Below the pieces are notes generated by a model that saw nothing but the letters and a program-made list of their open reading frames with translations, was not told where the DNA came from and did not search any database. From the IMG/VR virus record IMGVR_UViG_3300045988_093233, positions 1-39,186 of that record: DNA of 39,186 bases; one strand, written 5' to 3'. The DNA is from a virus. The translations under genes and the position numbers were made by a program. Positions 664-39,186 of this stretch are shown piece by piece (position 1 is the first letter of the stretch; each line of letters begins with the position of its first letter).

Positions 664-892
664 TCTCCCACCATTTACAAACTATACAAGCATCATGCGG
701 AAAATCTCCTACCATCGGACAATCTCCGTTACAACAAACCTCGTCTTCCAGCCATTTGCATTTTGGGTCTTCCGGCTTTTCTGCGCCTGTTTCTCTTTTG
801 AAGAATCTGCACACCGAGCATTCATACTCGCATGTGCAGCTATCGTCCAGATTGAACGTACAGGCATTGTTTCCGTTTAGGTATCTGCTCAT
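650..892 (-). CDS. Cys-rich small protein (80 aa), probable metal-binding
   Basis: Many CxxC-type pairs (CTCEYECSVC, CCNGDC, CIVC). Start/stop overlaps with neighbours suggest translational coupling. Confidence 0.6.
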   Translation of the reverse strand: MSRYLNGNNACTFNLDDSCTCEYECSVCRFFKRETGAEKPEDPKCKWLEDEVCCNGDCPMVGDFPHDACIVCKWWENETL

Positions 893-1449
893 TGTTTCAA
901 CATCCTTTCCATCTCCATGAAATCGTCTTTGACAAATTCTATTGTTCCGGTTTCGCCTAACTGTATGTACATCGGCAGTCGCAAAGACTTTGGAAGCATT
1001 GATTCTTCCCTCGAGACCCTTGTCACCTGTTCATAAACCATCCGGAACTGCGCTCTGCATACTTCTTCGTTTTCGCTCATACAGATTGATTCCCACCCCA
1101 TGCGCTTAACTGCGTTTTTGGTGTTCTCATCGAAAAAATCCATCGCCCCAGGTTCATCATACATCCCATACAGACTAACCGCCCGTTTGACTTTATGCCA
1201 TCCGTCTGACCAATCGAATGTCGCATCTTTTCCGGATATCTTGATTGTCTGCTGCCTTATATCGGCTACCGTCGGCGGGAATTTATTCGTCTGAACGTGT
1301 CGCATAACCGCTATTTTTGCGTCCTTGTAGTCGATATCTCCAATCGCGCTATACCAGCAATCTAAGGCTTCGTTCGTCGGTAGAATATTATCCCTTGGAT
1401 AAAAATTCTTTATCACTGCCACAAGGCTTATAAATTCGCCTTTTGTCAT
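889..1449 (-). CDS. Replicative helicase loader, SPP1 G39P-like
   Basis: MTKGEFISLVAVIKNFYPRD...KFPPTVADIRQQ resembles the 'loader and inhibitor of G40P' family. ATG 1449 forms an ATGA overlap with the upstream stop, and the gene sits next to the replisome organizer. Confidence 0.6.
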   Translation of the reverse strand: MTKGEFISLVAVIKNFYPRDNILPTNEALDCWYSAIGDIDYKDAKIAVMRHVQTNKFPPTVADIRQQTIKISGKDATFDWSDGWHKVKRAVSLYGMYDEPGAMDFFDENTKNAVKRMGWESICMSENEEVCRAQFRMVYEQVTRVSREESMLPKSLRLPMYIQLGETGTIEFVKDDFMEMERMLKQ

Positions 1450-4581: not shown

Positions 4582-5156
4582 TATTTACCCTCCAAATCTT
4601 TCAGAACCTCCGCGAAACGTTCTTCTGTCGTTGAGCCGTTCAAGCCGTAATCTTTTGCAACTTCTGCAAATGATAAACCGCTTTCCTTTAAGTAGATAAT
4701 CAGCTTTTCGCGATAGGTCAGTTCGTTCGATTTTGGAGAAGATTTCTTCTTTTCAGACCCTCTTGTCTTTTCGGTAAATTCGTCCGTATCAGCGTCCTTT
4801 GTATCGTCAATGCAGAACAGCCCGTTTAAGGCATATTTTCTAGCGTAGGACGACGTTGCCCCGGTGATCTGCGAAGAATCCATTCCCTTTTTTGTCTCTT
4901 CTTCTCTAGCGTACGCTGTAACCGAAGCAGCTTCGGAACCGTCGGTTACTGTTGCCGTTGCTTTTACATAGTATCTATCTCCAATCATTACGATCTCATC
5001 AGAGATAGTCAGCTGCACACCCTCTTCGGCGCAAAGCGGCTTTACCGCTTCGAGAATGTCTTCGCAGCTTCTATATTTGTAATTGCCGAATTTATTAAAC
5101 TGACCTTTTGGGGCTTTCAGTTCCTTTTGAATTTTTATTAGTTTATTCATGTTCAT
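4581..5156 (-). CDS. erf: ERF-family single-strand annealing protein
   Basis: KFGNYKYRSCEDILEAVKPL...YAREEETKKGMDSSQITGATSSYARKYALNGLFCIDD matches the ERF signature. The start is ambiguous (TTG 5168, ATG 5156 or ATG 5150). Confidence 0.8.
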   Translation of the reverse strand: MNMNKLIKIQKELKAPKGQFNKFGNYKYRSCEDILEAVKPLCAEEGVQLTISDEIVMIGDRYYVKATATVTDGSEAASVTAYAREEETKKGMDSSQITGATSSYARKYALNGLFCIDDTKDADTDEFTEKTRGSEKKKSSPKSNELTYREKLIIYLKESGLSFAEVAKDYGLNGSTTEERFAEVLKDLEGK

Positions 5157-5173
5157 TCTCCTCGACAAAGTTT

Positions 5174-5392
5174 TTAATTATTATTTGAAGTAACTTTTCT
5201 GCGTTTACTTAGGAGCTGTTCGTCTGTATATTTTGTGTAATCGCAGATCGTTTGCAATATGGCATCAAAGTTTTCCTCCGTTACCTCTTCCTTAAGTTCG
5301 TATCTGAGCGCTTTAGTTATGAGTCCTAACTCGCCGAACAAATCGACTGCGTTTCCTCTAAGTTTAACGATTCCGTTTTTCGCTTTAATCAT
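5174..5392 (-). CDS. Hypothetical protein (72 aa)
   Basis: ORF in the operon, overlapping the upstream gene. Confidence 0.55.
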   Translation of the reverse strand: MIKAKNGIVKLRGNAVDLFGELGLITKALRYELKEEVTEENFDAILQTICDYTKYTDEQLLSKRRKVTSNNN

Positions 5393-8337: not shown

Positions 8338-9174
8338 ATGAAAAAGGCTTTATCATTTATTTTATCTGTTTTCATAACGATATCAATGACAACTCCAGCT
8401 TATGGATATGGGCTGGAAAAACCAAACATAACATACATAGAATCGGACGGAAACTGCGTTTACATTGAATGGACTAATATTTATGGCGCCGAAATATACA
8501 ACGTATATCGTTCTGAAACTAACAAGTATGACTATGAATTTATAGACACAGCAACTAGCAATTCCTATTTTGATTCAAACGTAGAATATGGAAAAAGGTA
8601 TTATTACCAAGTCCAAGGGGTGAGCACCACAAGTTTTAGTGATCCAAGTGATTCTAAATCTGCAAAAATTGTATGGACTGATAAGCATTTCCCTGTTAAT
8701 GATTTGGGCAGACCGGAACTTACTACATTTACGGACGAAGATCAAGACTGTATATGGCTTCTTTGGGACGAGATCGAAGGAGCAAATGTATATTACATAT
8801 ATAGGTCAACCTCAAAAAACGGACCATACGAGTTAAAATATTTTGAAGATGAAAGCGTACTAACGTTTGATAAAAACATTAAAAAGAATAAACGATACTA
8901 TTACAAGGTTCAAGCCTTATATTTTGATGAAGAGAATGGGACTGTGCTAGGCGGAAAGCCTAGTTTGTGGAGATCTGATATAATCACAAGCAAAAGAATT
9001 GTAAAAAAATCAACCAAAACTGTATCAAAGCCCGTTAGTCAAACAGTGTACGTCACAAGAACAGGTTCAAAATATCACCGATATGGTTGCCAGTATTTAA
9101 GACAAAGCTGCTATTCTATGAGCAAATCTGATGCAAAAGCGCAAGGATATACAGCTTGTTCAAGGTGTTGGTGA
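8338..9174 (+). CDS. Secreted/lipoprotein-like protein with two FN3-like repeats and a C-terminal Cys-rich metal-binding tail
   Basis: Signal peptide MKKALSFILSVFITISMTTPAYG. Internal duplication (YNVYRSETNK...KRYYYQVQG and YYIYRSTSKN...KRYYYKVQA). C-terminus is GSKYHRYGCQYL...GYTACSRCW. Confidence 0.65.
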   Translation: MKKALSFILSVFITISMTTPAYGYGLEKPNITYIESDGNCVYIEWTNIYGAEIYNVYRSETNKYDYEFIDTATSNSYFDSNVEYGKRYYYQVQGVSTTSFSDPSDSKSAKIVWTDKHFPVNDLGRPELTTFTDEDQDCIWLLWDEIEGANVYYIYRSTSKNGPYELKYFEDESVLTFDKNIKKNKRYYYKVQALYFDEENGTVLGGKPSLWRSDIITSKRIVKKSTKTVSKPVSQTVYVTRTGSKYHRYGCQYLRQSCYSMSKSDAKAQGYTACSRCW

Positions 9175-9175
9175 T

Positions 9176-10213
9176 ATGGAATACATAAGAAAAACATTTA
9201 CCTTTGAGGGTAAACGGTACACTGTCAGAGGAAAAACTGAAAAAGAAGCCATTATGAAGATGGCGAATAAACTGCGGGATTTGGAGGAAGGCAGCGTTGT
9301 CATATCGGGGAATACTTCGGTAAAAGATTGGGCATTGAAGTGCGTGGAAACATACAAGACCAACCAAGCTGATGCTACAAGAAAAACCTATTTGGAAAAA
9401 ATGAATTCTGTCATTTTTACGAAAATTGGAAGCAGGACACTAAAATCAATAAAACCTTTTGACGTGCAAAATGTGATGAATTCTTTGCAAGGTTACTCGA
9501 AAGCCTACATATCCGATATTTATCAAATGCTTAGGTTTATTTTTTCAAAAGCAAAAACAAACAAACTGATTGCTGACGATCCAACGCTAGATTTACAGAA
9601 ACCAAAAGGAACAAAAAAGAACCGTCGTGCGCTCACAGAAAGTGAAGAATACCATTTTCTAAAAGTGTGTGAGGAAAGTGACAGGTTTTTGGTGTTCATG
9701 TTAATGTATTATTGCAGCTGTAGAACGTCAGAAGCAATCAACATTATGGGAAAAGATATTGTGGCAATTACAGAAAACGGAGAGAAGTACAACGTATTGC
9801 ATATAAGGGGAACAAAAAGCGGAAATGCTGACAGAAAGGTCCCTCTTCCGGATGTTTTATACAATCGAATAAAAAACACGCCTAAATTCAATTACGTTGC
9901 AACTGACACCAAAGGTAACAAGTATACAAAATCAAGCCTTAAATGTGCGCTAAATGCTCTACGCCGCGAAATGAACATCTCAATGGGGTGTAAGGTTTTT
10001 CGGAATGAACTTATTCAACCGCACCCTTTGGCGGATGATTTTGTTCCATACTGCTTGCGTCACACCTATTGTTCAAACCTATGCAAAAAAGGAGTGGATA
10101 TAAGAGTTGCGCAATACTTAATGGGACATTCGGACATTAGGCTGACAGCAAACATATATACACATACGGACAACTCTGCTATTGTGGATGCAGCAAAAAA
10201 AATGAGTGTGTGA
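9176..10213 (+). CDS. int: Tyrosine integrase
   Basis: N-terminal arm-binding-like FEGKRYTVRGKTEKEA. C-terminal catalytic pattern is ...CLRHTYCSNLCKKGVDIRVAQYLMGHSDIRLTANIYTH. ATG 9176 was chosen because the 9131 start overlaps the upstream gene. Confidence 0.9.
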   Translation: MEYIRKTFTFEGKRYTVRGKTEKEAIMKMANKLRDLEEGSVVISGNTSVKDWALKCVETYKTNQADATRKTYLEKMNSVIFTKIGSRTLKSIKPFDVQNVMNSLQGYSKAYISDIYQMLRFIFSKAKTNKLIADDPTLDLQKPKGTKKNRRALTESEEYHFLKVCEESDRFLVFMLMYYCSCRTSEAINIMGKDIVAITENGEKYNVLHIRGTKSGNADRKVPLPDVLYNRIKNTPKFNYVATDTKGNKYTKSSLKCALNALRREMNISMGCKVFRNELIQPHPLADDFVPYCLRHTYCSNLCKKGVDIRVAQYLMGHSDIRLTANIYTHTDNSAIVDAAKKMSV

Positions 10214-30986: not shown

Positions 30987-31689
30987 TTTTCGCCTCTAAT
31001 AGTCTTGGTCTTGAATATCCGAGTTCCTCAAGGTTCTTCTTCGCCTCATCAACACTGGATGTGTCCTCAACCTTTACCACCCTGTCTTCTCGCTTATCCG
31101 CCCAATCGCATAAATTCTTTAAGGTGAATATCGCACTGGATGTGTTATAGGCGCCAACTAGAGCCCCGTCACTTAACAGATCTCCTAGCATAGATTTATA
31201 TTCGCTCTCCTGCGATGGGCTCATATTCGCTAGGTGGTCCCGCATGGACCTCCTAGAAATGCCCAGCCACATCGCTAGGTTTGTAACGTTCGGCACAATC
31301 GGCATTACGCCTGTTTCTCCGTCCGGTCTCTTAAACTCTTTCACGAAATTGTGCTTTCGGATATATGCACAAAATCCCTCGAACGCAGTCAATATCTCGT
31401 CGCAGCTTTCAAATATCTTTTTTTGAAGCGGTTCTAAATTATCCCTCATAGAGTAAATATAGCCCCACATCGCTTTCGCTTCTTTCGTGAGGTCTTTATC
31501 CTCTAGGTTTAATGGGTTCGGTCTAGCTTGATCATACTGCTTATAAAGCTGGTCTGCTCTACGAATCGCTTTCTTCGCATACGCTGCCTTGTTCTTCTCT
31601 TTGATCTGCGGTCTTACATGCGGAACAAACGGTTGAACAACCAGTTCATCGTTCCTTGGTCTGCCCCTCTTTCTCTTTTCATCAGCCAT
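30979..31689 (-). CDS. terS: Terminase small subunit
   Basis: Basic N-terminus KRKRGRPR. HTH-like NVTNLAMWLGISRRSMRDHL and C-terminal AIFTLKNLCDWADK pattern. Immediately upstream of TerL with an 8-nt overlap. ATG 31689 has a GAGGTG RBS. Confidence 0.75.
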   Translation of the reverse strand: MADEKRKRGRPRNDELVVQPFVPHVRPQIKEKNKAAYAKKAIRRADQLYKQYDQARPNPLNLEDKDLTKEAKAMWGYIYSMRDNLEPLQKKIFESCDEILTAFEGFCAYIRKHNFVKEFKRPDGETGVMPIVPNVTNLAMWLGISRRSMRDHLANMSPSQESEYKSMLGDLLSDGALVGAYNTSSAIFTLKNLCDWADKREDRVVKVEDTSSVDEAKKNLEELGYSRPRLLEAKNE

Positions 31690-32214
31690 TTTGCACCTCT
31701 TTTCAGTCATTTTGTATATTTATGCACAATTTTCGGATACTTGCCCGAGGAATCGTGATACTTTTATTCGTTTTCGTGTATAATTCTATTATTTTTTCGG
31801 TACTTACACTGCTTTTGACTAGTGGGGTCGCTACGATGTTGGTGTGAGGTGTAAGTACTCTGTATAGGGGACACGCTCGCGCGAGTGGGGTCATTTACGA
31901 TTCACCCCCATCGGGCACCCTGCCGCACCCCCTGCCCTACTATATGTAGTGGTCGAGGGGCAAAACAAGCGGCGGGAAAGAATAAGGGTATTTCTTCCAC
32001 CTCCTACGATTATTGAATTTTCAACGATTGCTGGCATAATGTAAAATGTTGTAACTATTCCGATAACTATGATTTAGGGAATAGTTGAGAAGAAATGAAG
32101 ATGTGCCAGTGATACATGGAAAGCGTGTGCCAGTCGGCTTTTTGGGCGGGAAGCATCTATACGAGCCCGGTCCATCCCCGTATTCAACCGAAATTGCGCT
32201 ACATTTATACGCAC

Positions 32215-32243
32215 GAAAAAAGACAGCCTGTATAGAGCTGTCT
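32215..32243 (-). terminator. Rho-independent terminator of the tRNA-containing transcript
   Basis: Minus strand reads AGACAGC-tctatacag-GCTGTCT followed by TTTTTT. There is no T-run on the plus strand. Confidence 0.75.
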
Positions 32244-32641
32244 GTGTAAATATAGTTTTGGTTTACTGTTTAGGGGTGTTCCTGTATAGTTTCCCCCGAT
32301 TCCGGCGCCGTCATATGCATCTGGCCGGCGTTCCTATATATGCCCTATGTCGCGTCTATATTGGTCGGGAATGCAGGATTCGAACCTGCTAAGCTATAAG
32401 CGTCAGATTTACAGTCTGATGTGCATCTCCCGCTGCACCGATTCCCGATATCTACGCGCGGCTGCGTGGATCCGGTAACGCGTCCTGCGCTCCGGGGTTG
32501 TTTGTTGCGGCCGTCATTCCCCCGATCGGTGACGCTGCGCTGTTCTATGTCATCCGCCCGCCTAGGGGGCGGCAATAACCGTTGCCCCCATTGCGGGGGC
32601 GTTGAAAGGAGGTCAAAAAACAATGAAAAACCTGTTTTCCC
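32244..32641 (-). ncRNA. GC-rich structured transcript (~190-nt leader, tRNA-Tyr, ~115-nt trailer)
   Basis: Bounded by an extended -10 promoter and a terminator. No credible ORF or RBS. Many G5/C5 runs form overlapping hairpins. Composition contrasts strongly with the rest of the genome. Confidence 0.45.
32362..32447 (-). tRNA. tRNA-Tyr: tRNA-Tyr (anticodon GTA), type II with long variable arm, encoded CCA
   Basis: Hand fold: acceptor CGGGAAT/ATTCCCG; D-stem GTGC/GCAC; anticodon arm TCAGA-CTGTAAA-TCTGA; 13-nt variable arm; T-arm GCAGG-TTCGAAT-CCTGC; A73; CCA. Total 86 nt. Confidence 0.85.
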
Positions 32642-32647
32642 ACTACT

Positions 32648-32656
32648 ATTGTACCA
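32648..32656 (-). promoter_or_regulatory. Extended -10 promoter (TGgTACAAT) for the tRNA transcript
   Basis: Minus strand reads ...aatgTGgTACAATagtagtg. The -35 is poor. Confidence 0.45.
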
Positions 32657-32750
32657 CATTTCCATAGATTTTTCGTCCGCGGAAAGTCCGCATTTTTCAA
32701 CGGTTTGCGGGTTTTGCCGAAAAAAGTTTGAAAAAAATTAAAAAAAGGTG

Positions 32751-32780
32751 TTGACATCATACCCGACGGTATGCTATGAT
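32751..32780 (+). promoter_or_regulatory. Near-consensus promoter of the plus-strand cassette
   Basis: TTGACA (32751-32756), 18-nt spacer, TATGAT (32775-32780). An A-rich UP-like tract lies upstream. Confidence 0.7.
32758..32774. promoter_or_regulatory. Operator-like inverted repeat CATACC-cgac-GGTATG(C) inside the promoter spacer
   Basis: Perfect 6-bp arms. The same 17-mer recurs at 33307-33323. Confidence 0.6.
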
Positions 32781-32833
32781 GTGGATACAACGAAAGAGCG
32801 GAACGGCAAAAGCCGATCGAAAGGAGAAAGAAA

Positions 32834-33103
32834 ATGAAGAAATACGTTTTTGAGGAGTACAGGGACAAAGCAGGTGTCGGAAGTGAAAAGATTTTCGACA
32901 CAAAAAAAGAAGCTGTTATGTTCGCAGAAAGCGAATGGAAATTCTTAACGGAAAATGACAAAGCGTCATACTTAAACGACGCAAACGGAACTTTTCGCGT
33001 CTACGAATTAGAATTCTCGCAGGAGCAGGCAGAGGATGAAGATTTGATGCTTAGCGAATTGTGGTATGCTGATGTGTGGGACGCATTGAGTGAGGGCAGA
33101 TAA
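32834..33103 (+). CDS. Small acidic protein (89 aa), first gene of the cassette
   Basis: AAGGAGA RBS. Rich in D/E (QEQAEDEDLMLSELWYADVWDALSE). Its stop overlaps the next start (TAATG). Confidence 0.65.
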   Translation: MKKYVFEEYRDKAGVGSEKIFDTKKEAVMFAESEWKFLTENDKASYLNDANGTFRVYELEFSQEQAEDEDLMLSELWYADVWDALSEGR

Positions 33104-33285
33104 TGGGAAAGACATCTAGTGAAGCCAAAGCCCGTTGGAAAAAAGCCAACTACGCAGAATACCATGTGAACTTGCGAAAAGATACCGACAGCGACCTAAT
33201 CGCGTTGGTGGAACGGCGAAAGCACAACGGCGAAAGCACAACGGAGGTTTTCCGGGACGCACTTAGAAAATTAAAAGAGGGTTGA
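33103..33285 (+). CDS. Ribbon-helix-helix (CopG/Arc-like) DNA-binding protein
   Basis: ANYAEYHVNLRKDTDSDLIALVERRKHNGESTTEVFRDALRKL fits a beta-strand / helix / helix RHH layout. Confidence 0.6.
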   Translation: MGKTSSEAKARWKKANYAEYHVNLRKDTDSDLIALVERRKHNGESTTEVFRDALRKLKEG

Positions 33286-33305
33286 CCAAAACCCTCAAAA
33301 ACATA

Positions 33306-33323
33306 GCATACCCGACGGTATGC
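33306..33323. promoter_or_regulatory. Second copy of the palindrome GCATACC-cgac-GGTATGC
   Basis: Identical core to the promoter operator. It follows a GAGGGTT/AACCCTC hairpin at the end of the RHH gene. Confidence 0.5.
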
Positions 33324-33423
33324 TGACCAAATTAAAAGCCCATGTAAAGAGAATTGGGTTAAGTTTTGTGAGGCAAAACGAACTTGTATGTTGTTAGGGG
33401 TTAGAATTTAGGAGGTTCAAAAC

Positions 33424-33441
33424 ATGAGAAGAATTAAATAA
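33424..33441 (+). CDS. Possible 5-codon leader ORF (MRRIK)
   Basis: AGGAGG lies 8 nt upstream of the ATG. Two GC-rich hairpins (33444-33459, 33466-33482) follow before the next gene. Confidence 0.3.
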   Translation: MRRIK

Positions 33442-33513
33442 ACGGCGGCACTAGCCGCCCCGTCTGCCGGTACAAGTCCGGCACTGATGAGCAAGAGCGA
33501 AACGGAGGGAAAA

Positions 33514-33717
33514 ATGAAAATTAGAAGTTTGTACATAACTGCTAGTAGAGCAGTTGCAGCACTTGCAAAAAAGTGGGAAGTGAATCCTGTATGGGTATGG
33601 GATTTGTTTGAATATGAATTCGGTGTTATAAAAGGCTTAGGCAATCTGGTTTCACAAGATGAGATCAACAGGGTTGAAAGCATCATTTGTGAAGAAATCA
33701 TTCATGACAGATCATGA
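33514..33717 (+). CDS. Hypothetical protein (67 aa)
   Basis: GGAGGG RBS before ATG 33514. The in-frame ATG 33487 has no RBS. Confidence 0.55.
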   Translation: MKIRSLYITASRAVAALAKKWEVNPVWVWDLFEYEFGVIKGLGNLVSQDEINRVESIICEEIIHDRS

Positions 33718-33732
33718 GAACGGAGGTACAAA

Positions 33733-33945
33733 ATGAGAAAGGTATTAAGCGCGATTACGGTAATTCTGATGGTTTTTACAATCGCATTAGCTAGCCATGT
33801 ATGGACGATGCACCATCTGAGCATCGAAACCGACGGCGACGGTGACAGCGCATTTATCACCTGTGCCGGTCTGACATGGTTCTATGGTATCAACGGCTAT
33901 GCCATAGATGCAGGCGGAAAAATGGTTGATTTTATCTGTGATTGA
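33733..33945 (+). CDS. Small membrane/secreted protein (70 aa)
   Basis: N-terminal hydrophobic segment VLSAITVILMVFTIALA. GGAGG RBS. Confidence 0.6.
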   Translation: MRKVLSAITVILMVFTIALASHVWTMHHLSIETDGDGDSAFITCAGLTWFYGINGYAIDAGGKMVDFICD

Positions 33946-33977
33946 TGATAGAATTACGAAAACAGGAGGACGAAAAG

Positions 33978-34397
33978 ATGAAAATTATGCAAGAAAACGG
34001 AAAGATCGTTATGGACATTACAATCTCGCAACCTCAGAAGAACGGTGATGTATACAAATACATCACAAAGAAACGTTTGGGTGGAAGTGTTACCGAGGAC
34101 GAATTTCTCGGTCTCAATGCCCCGGATATTCTGGTCGAAATATCCATGCCAGAGCTTCAAGGTTCCGAAAAACAAATTGCATGGGCCGAAGACATCAGGA
34201 TGAATATGATTTACAATTTTATGCACGAAAAAATTGAGATGAATGGTTGGGTATCCATGTTAGATCAAGGAAAAGCAATGGGAATCAATACGTATCAGGA
34301 GTTGTTCGAAGCACTGATGAAAGCGAATTTTCCGAAGTTGCTGCAAGAGACAAAAGCAAAAGAGATCATAGAGAATAGATACGCAATAAGGTTTTAG
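33978..34397 (+). CDS. Hypothetical protein (139 aa) with a GSEKQIAWAEDIR motif
   Basis: AGGAGG lies 8 nt before ATG 33978. I could not assign a family. Confidence 0.6.
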   Translation: MKIMQENGKIVMDITISQPQKNGDVYKYITKKRLGGSVTEDEFLGLNAPDILVEISMPELQGSEKQIAWAEDIRMNMIYNFMHEKIEMNGWVSMLDQGKAMGINTYQELFEALMKANFPKLLQETKAKEIIENRYAIRF

Positions 34398-34405
34398 GTG
34401 GGAAA

Positions 34406-34621
34406 ATGAAAAAATATCATGTTGAATACGCAACACCGGAAATGGTAAAAGATCACGGTGGATTACACGATTTGAGTTGGGGAGATATTAGTGATGCGAT
34501 CGACGCTGAAAGCGAAGATGAGGCTATTGAATTAGCGAAGCAGTCACTAATTGATGATGGATATGAAGAGAATATCGAAGATGTTTATTTTCGAGCAAAA
34601 ACTATTGACAAAATTTATTGA
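34406..34621 (+). CDS. Small acidic protein (71 aa)
   Basis: D/E-rich (DAIDAESEDEAIELAKQSLIDDGYEENIEDV). Last ORF of the cassette. Confidence 0.6.
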   Translation: MKKYHVEYATPEMVKDHGGLHDLSWGDISDAIDAESEDEAIELAKQSLIDDGYEENIEDVYFRAKTIDKIY

Positions 34622-34846: not shown

Positions 34847-35272
34847 TTATAGATTATTTACCTTGTAATCGGCGATTTTACGGAGTTTTTTTCTCAACTT
34901 GCTCAATCTGTCATAGGTTGCAGTTCTGTCGTATCCTAGGGCGCTTTTGAGGTATTCGAAGTTCTTCGTTCCCTTCTGCTGCGCGATGTACTGGATCATC
35001 AGCAGTTCGTCTGCATCTAAGGCAGCTGTCAGATTTTTATAGGCGTTCAGATATTCTTGGTATTCTCTGATCTCCCAGTCGATTTTTTCCCTTCGCTGCG
35101 CTTTTTGCACTGTCGGGTCCGATATTCCGCTGCCGCGAACATGGGAATAGTCCATGCCGCCGGAATCGGCTGCAGCTTCTTTTTCGGCGATCAGTTCCGC
35201 CAGTATTCTGACGTTTTTGTCATAGTCTGATAGGAACCGGTCAACGTCGAAGTTATAGTATTTTTCTACCAT
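34847..35272 (-). CDS. ArpU/RinA-type late transcription activator (sigma region-4-like)
   Basis: Last gene of the early operon. C-terminal ELLMIQYIAQQKG...LGYDRTATYDRLSKLRKKL is an HTH-like pattern. GAGGAG RBS before ATG 35272. Confidence 0.5.
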   Translation of the reverse strand: MVEKYYNFDVDRFLSDYDKNVRILAELIAEKEAAADSGGMDYSHVRGSGISDPTVQKAQRREKIDWEIREYQEYLNAYKNLTAALDADELLMIQYIAQQKGTKNFEYLKSALGYDRTATYDRLSKLRKKLRKIADYKVNNL

Positions 35273-35552
35273 GATTTTTCTCCTCATATTGCGCTTCGAA
35301 TATATGCATCATATCACAAAATCCTTGTGTGATGTCTTCTATGTCGTATTCGTAATATACGAGTTTTTTCGGATATGAAAGCGTAACAGCAGCGCCATCT
35401 TTTTCGATTACTAAAAATATTAAATGTTCGTGTTCATCATCGACAAAACGTGTTTCTATTTCCTTTTTTTTGCAATCTGATATAAAGTCATTTATCGCAT
35501 TGTAGAACCGTTTTTCCGTTTTGTCACATTTTTTGCGATATTTTCTACCCAT
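35253..35552 (-). CDS. Hypothetical protein (99 aa)
   Basis: ATG 35552 immediately follows the upstream stop. Confidence 0.5.
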   Translation of the reverse strand: MGRKYRKKCDKTEKRFYNAINDFISDCKKKEIETRFVDDEHEHLIFLVIEKDGAAVTLSYPKKLVYYEYDIEDITQGFCDMMHIFEAQYEEKNHGRKIL

Positions 35553-38777: not shown

Positions 38778-39186
38778 CTACACCTCAATACCTGTAATTT
38801 CCTTGAATATCTTTGCATCAAAATTTGGAATATCTTGTACGATTTTTTTAGCCTCTTCCGACATCTCTCCCCACCAATTCGCCCATGCTTCTTTCATAGT
38901 GTATTCTTTCAGATAACCACAAATCATTTCTTTTTCTGGGTCAGCTTTCTTTTCTTCTTCTGTGTATGGAATCCATTCTGTCAGCATGAACGGAGCACTG
39001 CATAATGCTTCATAGTATCTGCTTCTGTAGAAATCTAGCAGGCTCATTCCGGACGGTCGATTGAATATTCTAATATTCATATCCGGCTCGGTACAAAACA
39101 CACCGTTAGAATCGTTGCCTGTGTTCCCGTAGCCTGTGTTCCTGTAGCCTGTGTTACAGTCGCCTGTGTTCCTGTAGCCTGTGTTA
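38778..39186 (-). CDS. C-terminal part of the junction-spanning NTGxx pentapeptide-repeat protein
   Basis: The frame is open to the window end (…NTGYRNTGDCNTGYRNTGYGNTGNDSNGVFCTEPD…). It is in frame with 1..382 once the 41-bp overlap is removed, giving 750 nt in total. Confidence 0.75.
   Translation of the reverse strand, partial: NTGYRNTGDCNTGYRNTGYGNTGNDSNGVFCTEPDMNIRIFNRPSGMSLLDFYRSRYYEALCSAPFMLTEWIPYTEEEKKADPEKEMICGYLKEYTMKEAWANWWGEMSEEAKKIVQDIPNFDAKIFKEITGIEV
39146..39186. repeat. Terminal direct overlap, copy 2 (identical to 1..41)
   Basis: Exact 41-nt identity with the window start. Confidence 0.9.

Follow-up and report, generated by a model that had tools for sequence, protein, structure and literature searches.

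Is the tRNA-Tyr gene carried by IMG/VR virus record IMGVR_UViG_3300045988_093233 a gene on its own, or one part of a larger non-coding RNA? The whole 39,186-nt stretch of that record (positions 1 to 39,186; hereafter the window) raises the question because an initial annotation had drawn a single minus-strand transcription unit there, with the tRNA embedded between a leader and a trailer. Comparison of this unit with its relatives shows that the tRNA is a cassette placed inside a larger non-coding element, the two ends of which are kept whether or not the tRNA is present. The reading that we favor, to which we give a probability of about one half, is that of a self-contained accessory non-coding unit, the source of a phage-type tRNA-Tyr and of small RNAs with a putative separate role.

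The unit runs from an extended -10 promoter (TGGTACAAT, 32656-32648, minus strand, without a -35 consensus) to an intrinsic terminator whose stem (32243-32221, minus strand) has eight pairs and is followed by T6. From these signals we infer a transcription start site (TSS) at about 32641-32644 and a transcript of about 430 nt. The tRNA-Tyr(GUA), a class II tRNA with a long variable arm and an encoded CCA (32364-32362), lies at 32447-32362 on the minus strand and makes up 86 of the 441 nt of the unit, with a leader of ~194 nt and a trailer of ~118 nt. Promoter, terminator, tRNA and the 11-mers that flank it were all recovered where the initial annotation had placed them, and its description of one promoter-to-terminator non-coding unit with the tRNA as roughly the central fifth is borne out. 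The further claim that both flanks are strikingly GC-rich stands for the leader (59%, with 65% in its core), in which lies the 190-nt stretch with the highest GC content of the window, but not for the trailer, which reaches 47-52% against a window mean of 42.6%. No open reading frame (ORF) accounts for the region, as had been proposed; protein coding was considered and rejected, since the 106-aa ORFs found there are unconserved and differ among relatives in frame, length and position.

Homologous loci were gathered through relatives of TerS, tRNA matches and exact-protein look-ups, which yielded 28 distinct versions of the unit with lengths of 200-520 nt. All of the related contigs are phage-sized and derive from human-gut metagenomes. 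Promoter, U-rich 5' segment, GC hairpin, GGGGGAA-type motif, A-rich tract and terminator are kept in every one of the 28 versions. The extended -10 holds a constant position throughout while its spelling varies (TGGTACAAT, TGGTAAAAT, TGCTATATT, TGTTAAAAT, TGATATAAT and TGTTATAAT), and the motif of every lineage remains TGnTAnAAT or TGnTATATT despite sequence change. The U-rich 5' segment, which spans 32604..32641 in the window (minus strand) and ends in an anti-Shine-Dalgarno-like CCUCCUUUC (32612-32604), carries UUUCAU and (C)CUCCUUUC in 28 of 28 versions, with CTCCTTTC invariant. At least one GGGGGAA-type motif is present per version, as AUCGGGGGAA in most and as GGUCGGGGCG in L031. Likewise common to all is the A-rich tract AAAACUAUAUUUACA, represented in the window by AAACAGUAAACCAAAACUAUAUUUACA and followed there by the terminator (32215..32272, minus strand).

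This conservation is concentrated at the two ends. Close relatives are 94-99% identical to the window across the 5' end of the unit, the tRNA and the 3' end (94-97% for the 5' end and 95-99% for the 3' end), and the unit ends are better conserved than the adjacent protein genes; in L015, for instance, the tRNA and 3' end are still about 95% identical while terS has fallen to 78%. Coverage by relatives collapses in the mid-leader, where it ranges from 11 to 89%, and in the trailer, where relatives differ by indels of 8-12 nt and where GGGCATATATAGG is nonetheless common even to the most divergent lineage (L016/L033). Leader, trailer, promoter and terminator also persist in all 11 versions that have no tRNA, including the divergent L016/L033 and L029/L031/L032 groups, which upholds the view that leader and trailer are more than the flanks of a tRNA gene. 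The element is real but narrowly distributed, being known in one phage group, and any function beyond the tRNA is putative. Among INPHARED phages no homolog of the 1.2-kb region was found, the match being limited to the tRNA and made with the tRNA-Tyr of another phage, and a covariance model of the 5' domain finds this phage group only, with no hits in 80 other loci that share the neighboring palindrome. As for abundance, the assembly index has the TerS protein in 93 of its blocks.

We further note that the tRNA itself comes and goes within this framework. It is carried by 17 of the 28 versions (~60%) and missing from the other 11. In L011, L019 and L290 a remnant ATCGGTGCAGCGG|ATCATATAGG is left, in which ATCGGTGCAGCGG is fused to ATCATATAGGCGCG by an internal deletion from the D loop to the CCA, and L024, L025 and L295 hold a further diverged remnant. 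L030 has its tRNA at another site, within the 5' arm of hairpin 2. Mutations at universally conserved T-loop positions in L291 (U55C) and L297 (C56U) suggest occasional decay. That the tRNA can be present, deleted with a remnant or relocated indicates that it is a dispensable cassette within a larger non-coding unit, and the same three observations fit the suggestion, made when the locus was first annotated, that a tRNA had been inserted into a larger RNA.

Where it is retained, the tRNA is under selection. Its cloverleaf is 99.6% paired and shows three two-sided compensatory pairs (in the anticodon, variable and T stems), a number matched by 1 of 500 shuffles; together these features show that selection acts on the cloverleaf. 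The compensatory pairs come from the comparison of window-type copies with the L030-type copy, which differs at about 17 of 83 positions. Across lineages whose terS genes are 78-98% identical, the tRNA is 96-99% identical. The Rfam model RF00005 matches it with 48.4 bits against a gathering score of 29, over model positions 1-71 of 71, and the expected features are in place: U33 and GUA in an anticodon loop of 7 nt, a long variable arm, A73 and the T-loop sequence UUCGAAU. The canonical U8 and G1-C72 of bacterial tRNA-Tyr are replaced by C8 and C1-G72. Over its final 29-30 nt, which take in the T arm, the acceptor 3' strand, A73 and CCA, the gene is identical to phage tRNA-Pro(UGG) genes found on unrelated viral contigs, and the acceptor 5' strands of those genes differ from that of the tRNA-Tyr at 0-1 positions. 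Its resemblance to the tRNA-Tyr of Bacillus phage vB_BcoS-136 (79% identical), which also has C8, lies instead in the D arm, the anticodon arm and the long variable arm. As judged against phage tRNAs, the gene thus seems to come from a phage lineage, possibly as a chimera, and not from a recent capture out of a host. A permuted transfer-messenger RNA (tmRNA), which ARAGORN called solely at -ps80, was rejected as spurious because its tag frame crosses the clamp arm described below and the first ~40 nt of the tRNA; Rfam gave no tmRNA match in the window at gathering score or in 31800-33000 at E <= 10.

The tRNA of the window is clamped by an 11-nt helix between leader (5' arm 32458-32448, CGCGTAGATAT / CGCGUAGAUAU) and trailer (3' arm 32361-32351, ATATAGACGCG / AUAUAGACGCG), both on the minus strand. 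The arms pair just as had been described, with nine Watson-Crick pairs around a tandem A.G/G.A mismatch, and the duplex has a predicted energy of -9.7 kcal/mol compared with -4.0 for shuffled arms, 1% of which reach such an energy. A role as a processing stalk, one of the origins first suggested for this helix, is not supported by the relatives. The clamp clearly beats shuffled arms in 4 of the 17 tRNA-bearing versions (the window, L013, L026 and L027), is weaker in L014, L299 and L010, and is absent through replacement of one or the other flank in L012/L018, L015/L028, L020, L030, L291, L294 and L297; no compensatory change was seen in it among the 17. Moreover, its arms consist of self-complementary AUAU and CGCG/GCGC pieces that recur at other module boundaries, and pairing potential can therefore arise without selection for a stalk. 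The clamp is real in this phage as a lineage-specific by-product of boundary motifs, and it is neither a dedicated nor an essential processing element.

Such boundary motifs are part of a wider pattern, in that the middle of the unit is put together as a mosaic from short modules that recur (AUCGGGGGAA..., CAUAUAUAGGAAC and the GCGC/AUAU boundaries), with breakpoints that coincide with the short repeats AUCGGGGGAA, CAUAUAUAG and GCGC/AUAU. In the window this middle comprises the variable mid-leader module or modules at 32459..32548, with a AUCGGGGGAAU motif at 32526-32517, and the variable trailer at 32298..32350, with a recurrent GGGCAUAUAUAGGAAC motif (both on the minus strand). GGGGGAA occurs in 2-4 copies where 0.1-0.2 are expected, ATAYAGGAA is likewise strongly over-represented, and viable relatives have anywhere from 0 to 4 copies of the motifs. 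L027 and L292 show duplicated modules and an expanded mid-leader, L010 shows swapped modules, L020 has lost both hairpin 2 and the mid-leader, L015 and L028 have neither a trailer nor an encoded CCA, and L029 is a minimal unit of 200 nt. Several specific roles for the unit were considered. A CsrA sponge, prompted by the loop AUACAGGAA, is not indicated, GGA being unenriched (12 observed against 9.6 +/- 2.0). Nor is a ToxI-like type III antitoxin or CRISPR-repeat mimic indicated, since Tandem Repeats Finder detects no tandem array in the unit and no Rfam CRISPR-DR family is hit at E <= 10; mimicry of the host's own repeats is still conceivable. Extra copies of TACAGGAAC at the window ends proved to lie in a coding NTG repeat, and no trans targets stood out within the phage.

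The hairpins outside the tRNA give a more graded picture. All three that the initial annotation had named are in the sequence. Two recur in relatives, namely the first (32600-32584) and the core of the third (32579-32549); the GGCAA/TTGCC hairpin is lost in many, where TTGCC has become TGACC or TTACT. Hairpin 1 (32584..32600, minus strand) is GCCCCC-GCAAU-GGGGGC in the window, and the GCAAU loop is replaced in relatives by the GNRA loops GAGA, GAAA or GCAA on a CCCCG...CGGGG stem; the most divergent lineage, L016/L033, has the non-GNRA loop UGC, and L029 has CCUCG, with a U.G pair that is workable on the minus strand only. Hairpin 2 (32549..32579, minus strand), GUUAU-UG-CCGCCC-loop-GGGCGG-AUGAC in the window, is found in most versions as GUUAU-bulge-CCG...CGG-AUAAC. 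Its base helices are 98-99% paired in 20 versions, and its distal stem is CCGG/CCGG, CCGGC/GCCGG or CUGACCCGC/GCGGGCGG depending on lineage. The 3' hairpin (32273..32297, minus strand, GGGGG-AAACUAUACAGGAACA-CCCC), present in most versions as GGGG-loop-CCCC and lost in L029 and L032, has stem changes solely from C to U, which give G.U. Indeed, all wobble-type stem changes in the unit give G.U on the minus strand and A.C on the plus strand. GNRA loops and G.U-only wobble changes argue for a structured RNA read from the minus strand, as do the distal stems of hairpin 2, specific to each lineage, and the conservation of promoter and terminator. In the centroid structure of the trailer, the terminator and one short hairpin are the only helices kept. 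Against all 4227 Rfam families the tRNA is the sole match, in the window at gathering score, in 31800-33000 at E <= 10, and in six relatives at E <= 1. A weak hammerhead type III match at 853-904 (minus strand) of L024 (29.2 bits, E = 0.023) falls below the gathering score of 48.5.

These observations lead us to the following proposal for the unit. The primary transcript would be a tRNA precursor, from which RNase P, by cutting at 32447/32448, and trimming of the 3' side as far as the encoded CCA would release the tRNA. Once released, the tRNA may supplement or replace the host tRNA-Tyr in infection, and the conserved 5' and 3' pieces would remain as small RNAs with a separate role, conserved ends implying a second, tRNA-independent function. 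The purpose of the tRNA could be codon supply or, more likely, insurance against defenses that cleave tRNA-Tyr. Counter-defense fits better than codon adaptation because the tRNA is single, atypical, often lost and relocated. Precedents exist: two reports describe a phage tRNA-Tyr that counters the Retron-Eco7 effector PtuAB (PMC11555353, PMC12673091), and a third describes cleavage of the tRNA-Tyr variable loop by Septu (PMC13096335). The present gene resembles phage tRNAs used as counter-defense, such as the T5 tRNA-Tyr directed against Retron-Eco7 PtuAB, with tRNA-Tyr also a target of Septu, in being a phage-borne single tRNA-Tyr(GUA), with non-standard features (C1-G72 and C8) and a presence/absence polymorphism typical of anti-defense cargo. 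It differs in being a lone tRNA gene of a 39-kb temperate phage, set inside a conserved non-coding unit and not in a tRNA island, and a counter-defense role for it is putative.

Several results weigh against this proposal. Two-sided covariation in the alignable flank helices amounts to zero pairs, no better than in shuffles, so that the absence of covariation which the initial annotation had named as speaking against a structured RNA is what we find for the flanks. Folding z-scores against composition-matched shuffles are -1.46 for the leader, -1.97 for the trailer and -2.44 for the whole unit, and the flanks fold no better than shuffled sequence. The sampling is too shallow to prove or disprove structured flanks. 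No module is present in all versions, not even hairpin 2 or the 3' hairpin, and the high identity of the ends could stem from recent recombination between phages and not from selection. ARAGORN misses the tRNA at its default setting and calls tRNA-Tyr(gta) at -ps90, and the charging identity appears uncertain given C8 and the tRNA-Pro-like acceptor stem. What the comparison demonstrates is the anatomy of the unit and its conservation, the mosaic middle, and a tRNA with a valid fold that can be dispensed with; transcription, processing, tyrosine charging and biological role are predictions from these data.

The genomic setting bears on the rival explanations. The window is a temperate phage with a tyrosine integrase (9131-10213), ERF, YqaJ, SSB, RusA, a G39P-like loader, a CHAP endolysin and a holin, and related contigs carry a helix-turn-helix (HTH) repressor and an M78 peptidase (ImmR/ImmA-like) beside the integrase. 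Its packaging genes are of the headful type (TerL matching Terminase_6N/6C, with weak matches of TerS to GP3_package and of the portal to P22), and the closest cultured TerL proteins, at 46-48% identity, belong to Bacillus megaterium phages (Pascal, Page and Pony) and Staphylococcus epidermidis phages. The carriers are thus probably a clade of temperate, pac-type human-gut phages that infect Firmicutes. Searches by TerS and integrase returned phage-sized contigs only, none with bacterial flanks. Positions 1-381 and 38778-39186 (minus strand) belong to one gene with NTG(D/Y)(C/R/G)-type tandem peptide repeats, and the window thus represents a phage genome, circularly permuted or circular, that is cut inside this gene. 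Toward the early-region end, a 146-aa ORF (34847-35287, minus strand) has a C-terminus (…TYDRLSKLRKKLRK…) that appears HTH-like by eye, with no Pfam or PHROG hit; it might encode a late-gene activator.

The unit occupies a 1.1-kb ORF-free gap with a divergent, variable accessory operon on one side and the minus-strand genes terS, terL and portal on the other, and it is directed toward terS, which starts at 31689, 510 nt downstream. A TTGACA-18-TATGAT promoter at 32751-32780 belongs to the divergent operon, whose first gene begins at 32834 (plus strand). In the window (32834-34621, plus strand) and at the homologous positions of L290-L299 this operon holds variable cargo, with a first gene of 89, 78 or 53 aa or none, and then a gene for a ribbon-helix-helix (RHH) protein of 60/61 aa that in some versions matches RepB-RCR_reg/CopG. 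Between the two promoters lies a terminator-like palindrome, GCGGAAAGTCCGC then ATTTTTCAA (32679..32698, plus strand), which is conserved in all lineages, with the loop AAG changed to ATT in L029. It is centered about 44 nt upstream of the inferred TSS and could alternatively serve as an operator or as a site for an activator. A perfect start site, GAAAGGAGG-N10-ATG, lies antisense to the 5' end of the unit (32604-32667, plus strand). Every lineage has such a plus-strand Shine-Dalgarno-ATG pair with a spacing of 6-10 nt, opening an ORF of 1 to >20 codons that is frameshifted between relatives. Antisense transcription through all of the unit could start from a weak promoter-like site on the plus strand at 32262-32290.

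On the terS side of the unit terminator, a 34-bp palindrome, AACTATTCC-N16-GGAATAGTT (32053-32086), has a fixed 16-nt AT-rich spacer. A pattern search found 87 such stretches, about 70-75 of them with the 16-nt spacer, on IMG/VR contigs from many metagenomes (including L210-L289). Some contigs have two copies, 75 or 105 nt apart, and the palindromes GCGAAAACGTTTTCGC, CACTATATATAGTG and GTTGAAATTCCAACG often stand alongside. The palindrome is not in Rfam, and a literature search on its sequence gave unrelated primers only; it may be a protein-binding site (a pac site or late promoter) or a hairpin. In three phages with this palindrome (L242, about 4970-5320; L260, about 880-1210; L226, about 1220-1670) a non-coding stretch rich in G-runs and C-runs is followed by a single tRNA directly upstream of terL, with no terS ORF between tRNA and terL. 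L242 and L260 are homologous there but have different tRNAs, Thr and Asn, at the same site. Nearer to terS, direct repeats (G)AATCGTAAAYGMCCCCACT lie about 65 nt apart at 31903-31884 and 31839-31821 (minus strand), the first of which supplies a GGGGU/ACCCC hairpin with its loop and 3' arm. Every lineage has conserved these repeats, and L242/L260 have a similar sequence. A cos site is unlikely in this region, the terminase being of the headful P22/T4 type.

The direction of the unit invites the idea of a late-operon leader, in which a short terminated RNA is made in the lysogen and antiterminated read-through into terS, terL and portal occurs in the lytic phase, with CUCCUUUCAA and the GNRA hairpin as a boxA/boxB-like site and the tRNA and other modules as passengers. 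In lambda and Stx phages a constitutive promoter, PR', produces a short RNA terminated at tR' (6S RNA, StxS) just upstream of the late operon; tRNA genes lie nearby, downstream of PR' in Stx phages, and the layout of the present unit is similar. It points at terS 510 nt away with neither another minus-strand terminator nor a convincing, conserved sigma-70 promoter in between, its U-rich segment is followed in most lineages by a GC stem with a GNRA(N) loop in a nut-like order, and other phages with the 34-bp palindrome also place a single tRNA in a leader directly upstream of terL. We nevertheless consider this idea improbable. No N- or Q-like gene or domain was found among the scanned ORFs and no qut site was identified, CUCCUUUCAA resembles boxA loosely, the GNRA loop is missing in L016/L033, the gene immediately upstream is divergent and not co-oriented, and the 510-nt gap has palindromes and direct repeats that are themselves conserved and could contain a late promoter dependent on an activator. 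The RNA might instead act through its 5' end on the divergent operon as an antisense regulator of the first gene, UUUCAU...CUCCUUUC pairing with its Shine-Dalgarno sequence and AUG as in istR/tisB, P22 sar or P1 c4. About 21 bp of complementarity to the divergent start in L014, L015 and L027 (about -30 to -34 kcal/mol), the constant distance of that start, about 166 nt upstream of the unit promoter, and the RHH/CopG-like protein encoded in the neighboring operon are all in keeping with such regulation. The chances seem slim, however, since the duplex in the window (-24.7 kcal/mol) is not the best in its genome, where other starts reach -28 to -34, since L010 has a different first gene and weak pairing (-20 kcal/mol), and since any strong Firmicute start site (GAAAGGAG-N7-AUGAAA) would match.

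The absence of covariation and of excess folding stability in the flanks could also mean that they are debris: only the tRNA matters or once mattered, the flanks being relics of duplicated or deleted tRNA pieces and recombination scars, with the tRNA-less versions in decay. That every module is dispensable somewhere and that T-loop mutants occur would agree with this, as would the module ATCGGGGGAATGGCTGCATAGATGCAGG, which resembles the tRNA 5' acceptor strand and D arm, alongside the clear tRNA remnants. Yet no tRNA-less lineage has lost the promoter, 5' domain, 3' tract or terminator, the unit ends are more conserved than the neighboring protein genes, hairpin 1 still has a GNRA loop in most relatives, and stem substitutions are G.U-only on one strand, so that we find debris a doubtful account. 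Least plausible, and very improbable in our estimate, is a DNA-level element in which the GGGGGAA and ATATAGGAAC repeats and the palindromes bind TerS, as a pac site, or a phage regulator, transcription being incidental. Its position just upstream of terS, motifs repeated well above chance and widely conserved palindromes in the adjacent gap would suit it, but the motifs lie 560-950 bp from terS, their copy number varies from 0 to 4 between viable relatives, the terminase resembles that of P22/Sf6-type phages, in which pac is inside terS, and the conserved promoter, terminator, GNRA loops and G.U pattern argue for RNA.

How, then, does the unit relate to known RNAs? A relation to GOLLD, ROOL or raiA, raised in the initial annotation, finds no support in Rfam, where none of these families matched even at E <= 10. 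The likeness to GOLLD and ROOL lies in a phage-encoded, non-coding RNA with conserved terminal regions and a variable linker able to hold a tRNA, and the GOLLD linker sometimes contains phage tRNAs (PMC12286853). The differences are the lack of a match to RF01998 or RF03087, a length of 200-520 nt compared with >800 nt for many GOLLD members, the lack of an ornate fold supported by covariation, and a very narrow distribution. One could go further and see here a new class of fast-evolving phage RNA, constant in its 5' and 3' terminal domains and hypervariable in a cargo linker whose cassettes (the atypical tRNA-Tyr and possibly decoy or regulatory hairpins) are shuffled by short-repeat recombination. 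Such an RNA would correspond, in miniature, to the linker of GOLLD that bears tRNAs, or would be an anti-defense array at the RNA level; we regard this as a tentative and, on balance, unlikely extension. rRNA-operon processing stalks and spacer tRNAs, as well as small RNAs derived from tRNA precursors such as 3'ETS-leuZ, similarly have a leader/trailer pair around an embedded RNA gene, and flanks of this kind could survive RNase P cleavage as small RNAs; the stalk here is 11 bp long and unconserved in relatives. Taken as a whole, the unit belongs with phage tRNA cargo and phage small RNA units and is not a categorically new system.

If the accessory-unit reading is true, the turnover of a tRNA gene, through gain, relocation, internal deletion and point decay, is seen here at high resolution in one conserved unit of a phage population, and such a turnover pattern would be expected of counter-defense cargo and not of codon adaptation. 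With its class II Tyr features placed on C1-G72 and a tRNA-Pro-like acceptor stem, the tRNA would be a natural test case for tRNA identity and nuclease escape. The unit as a whole is a candidate for a compact and abundant RNA of human-gut phages, whose conserved ends may have a regulatory or decoy role.

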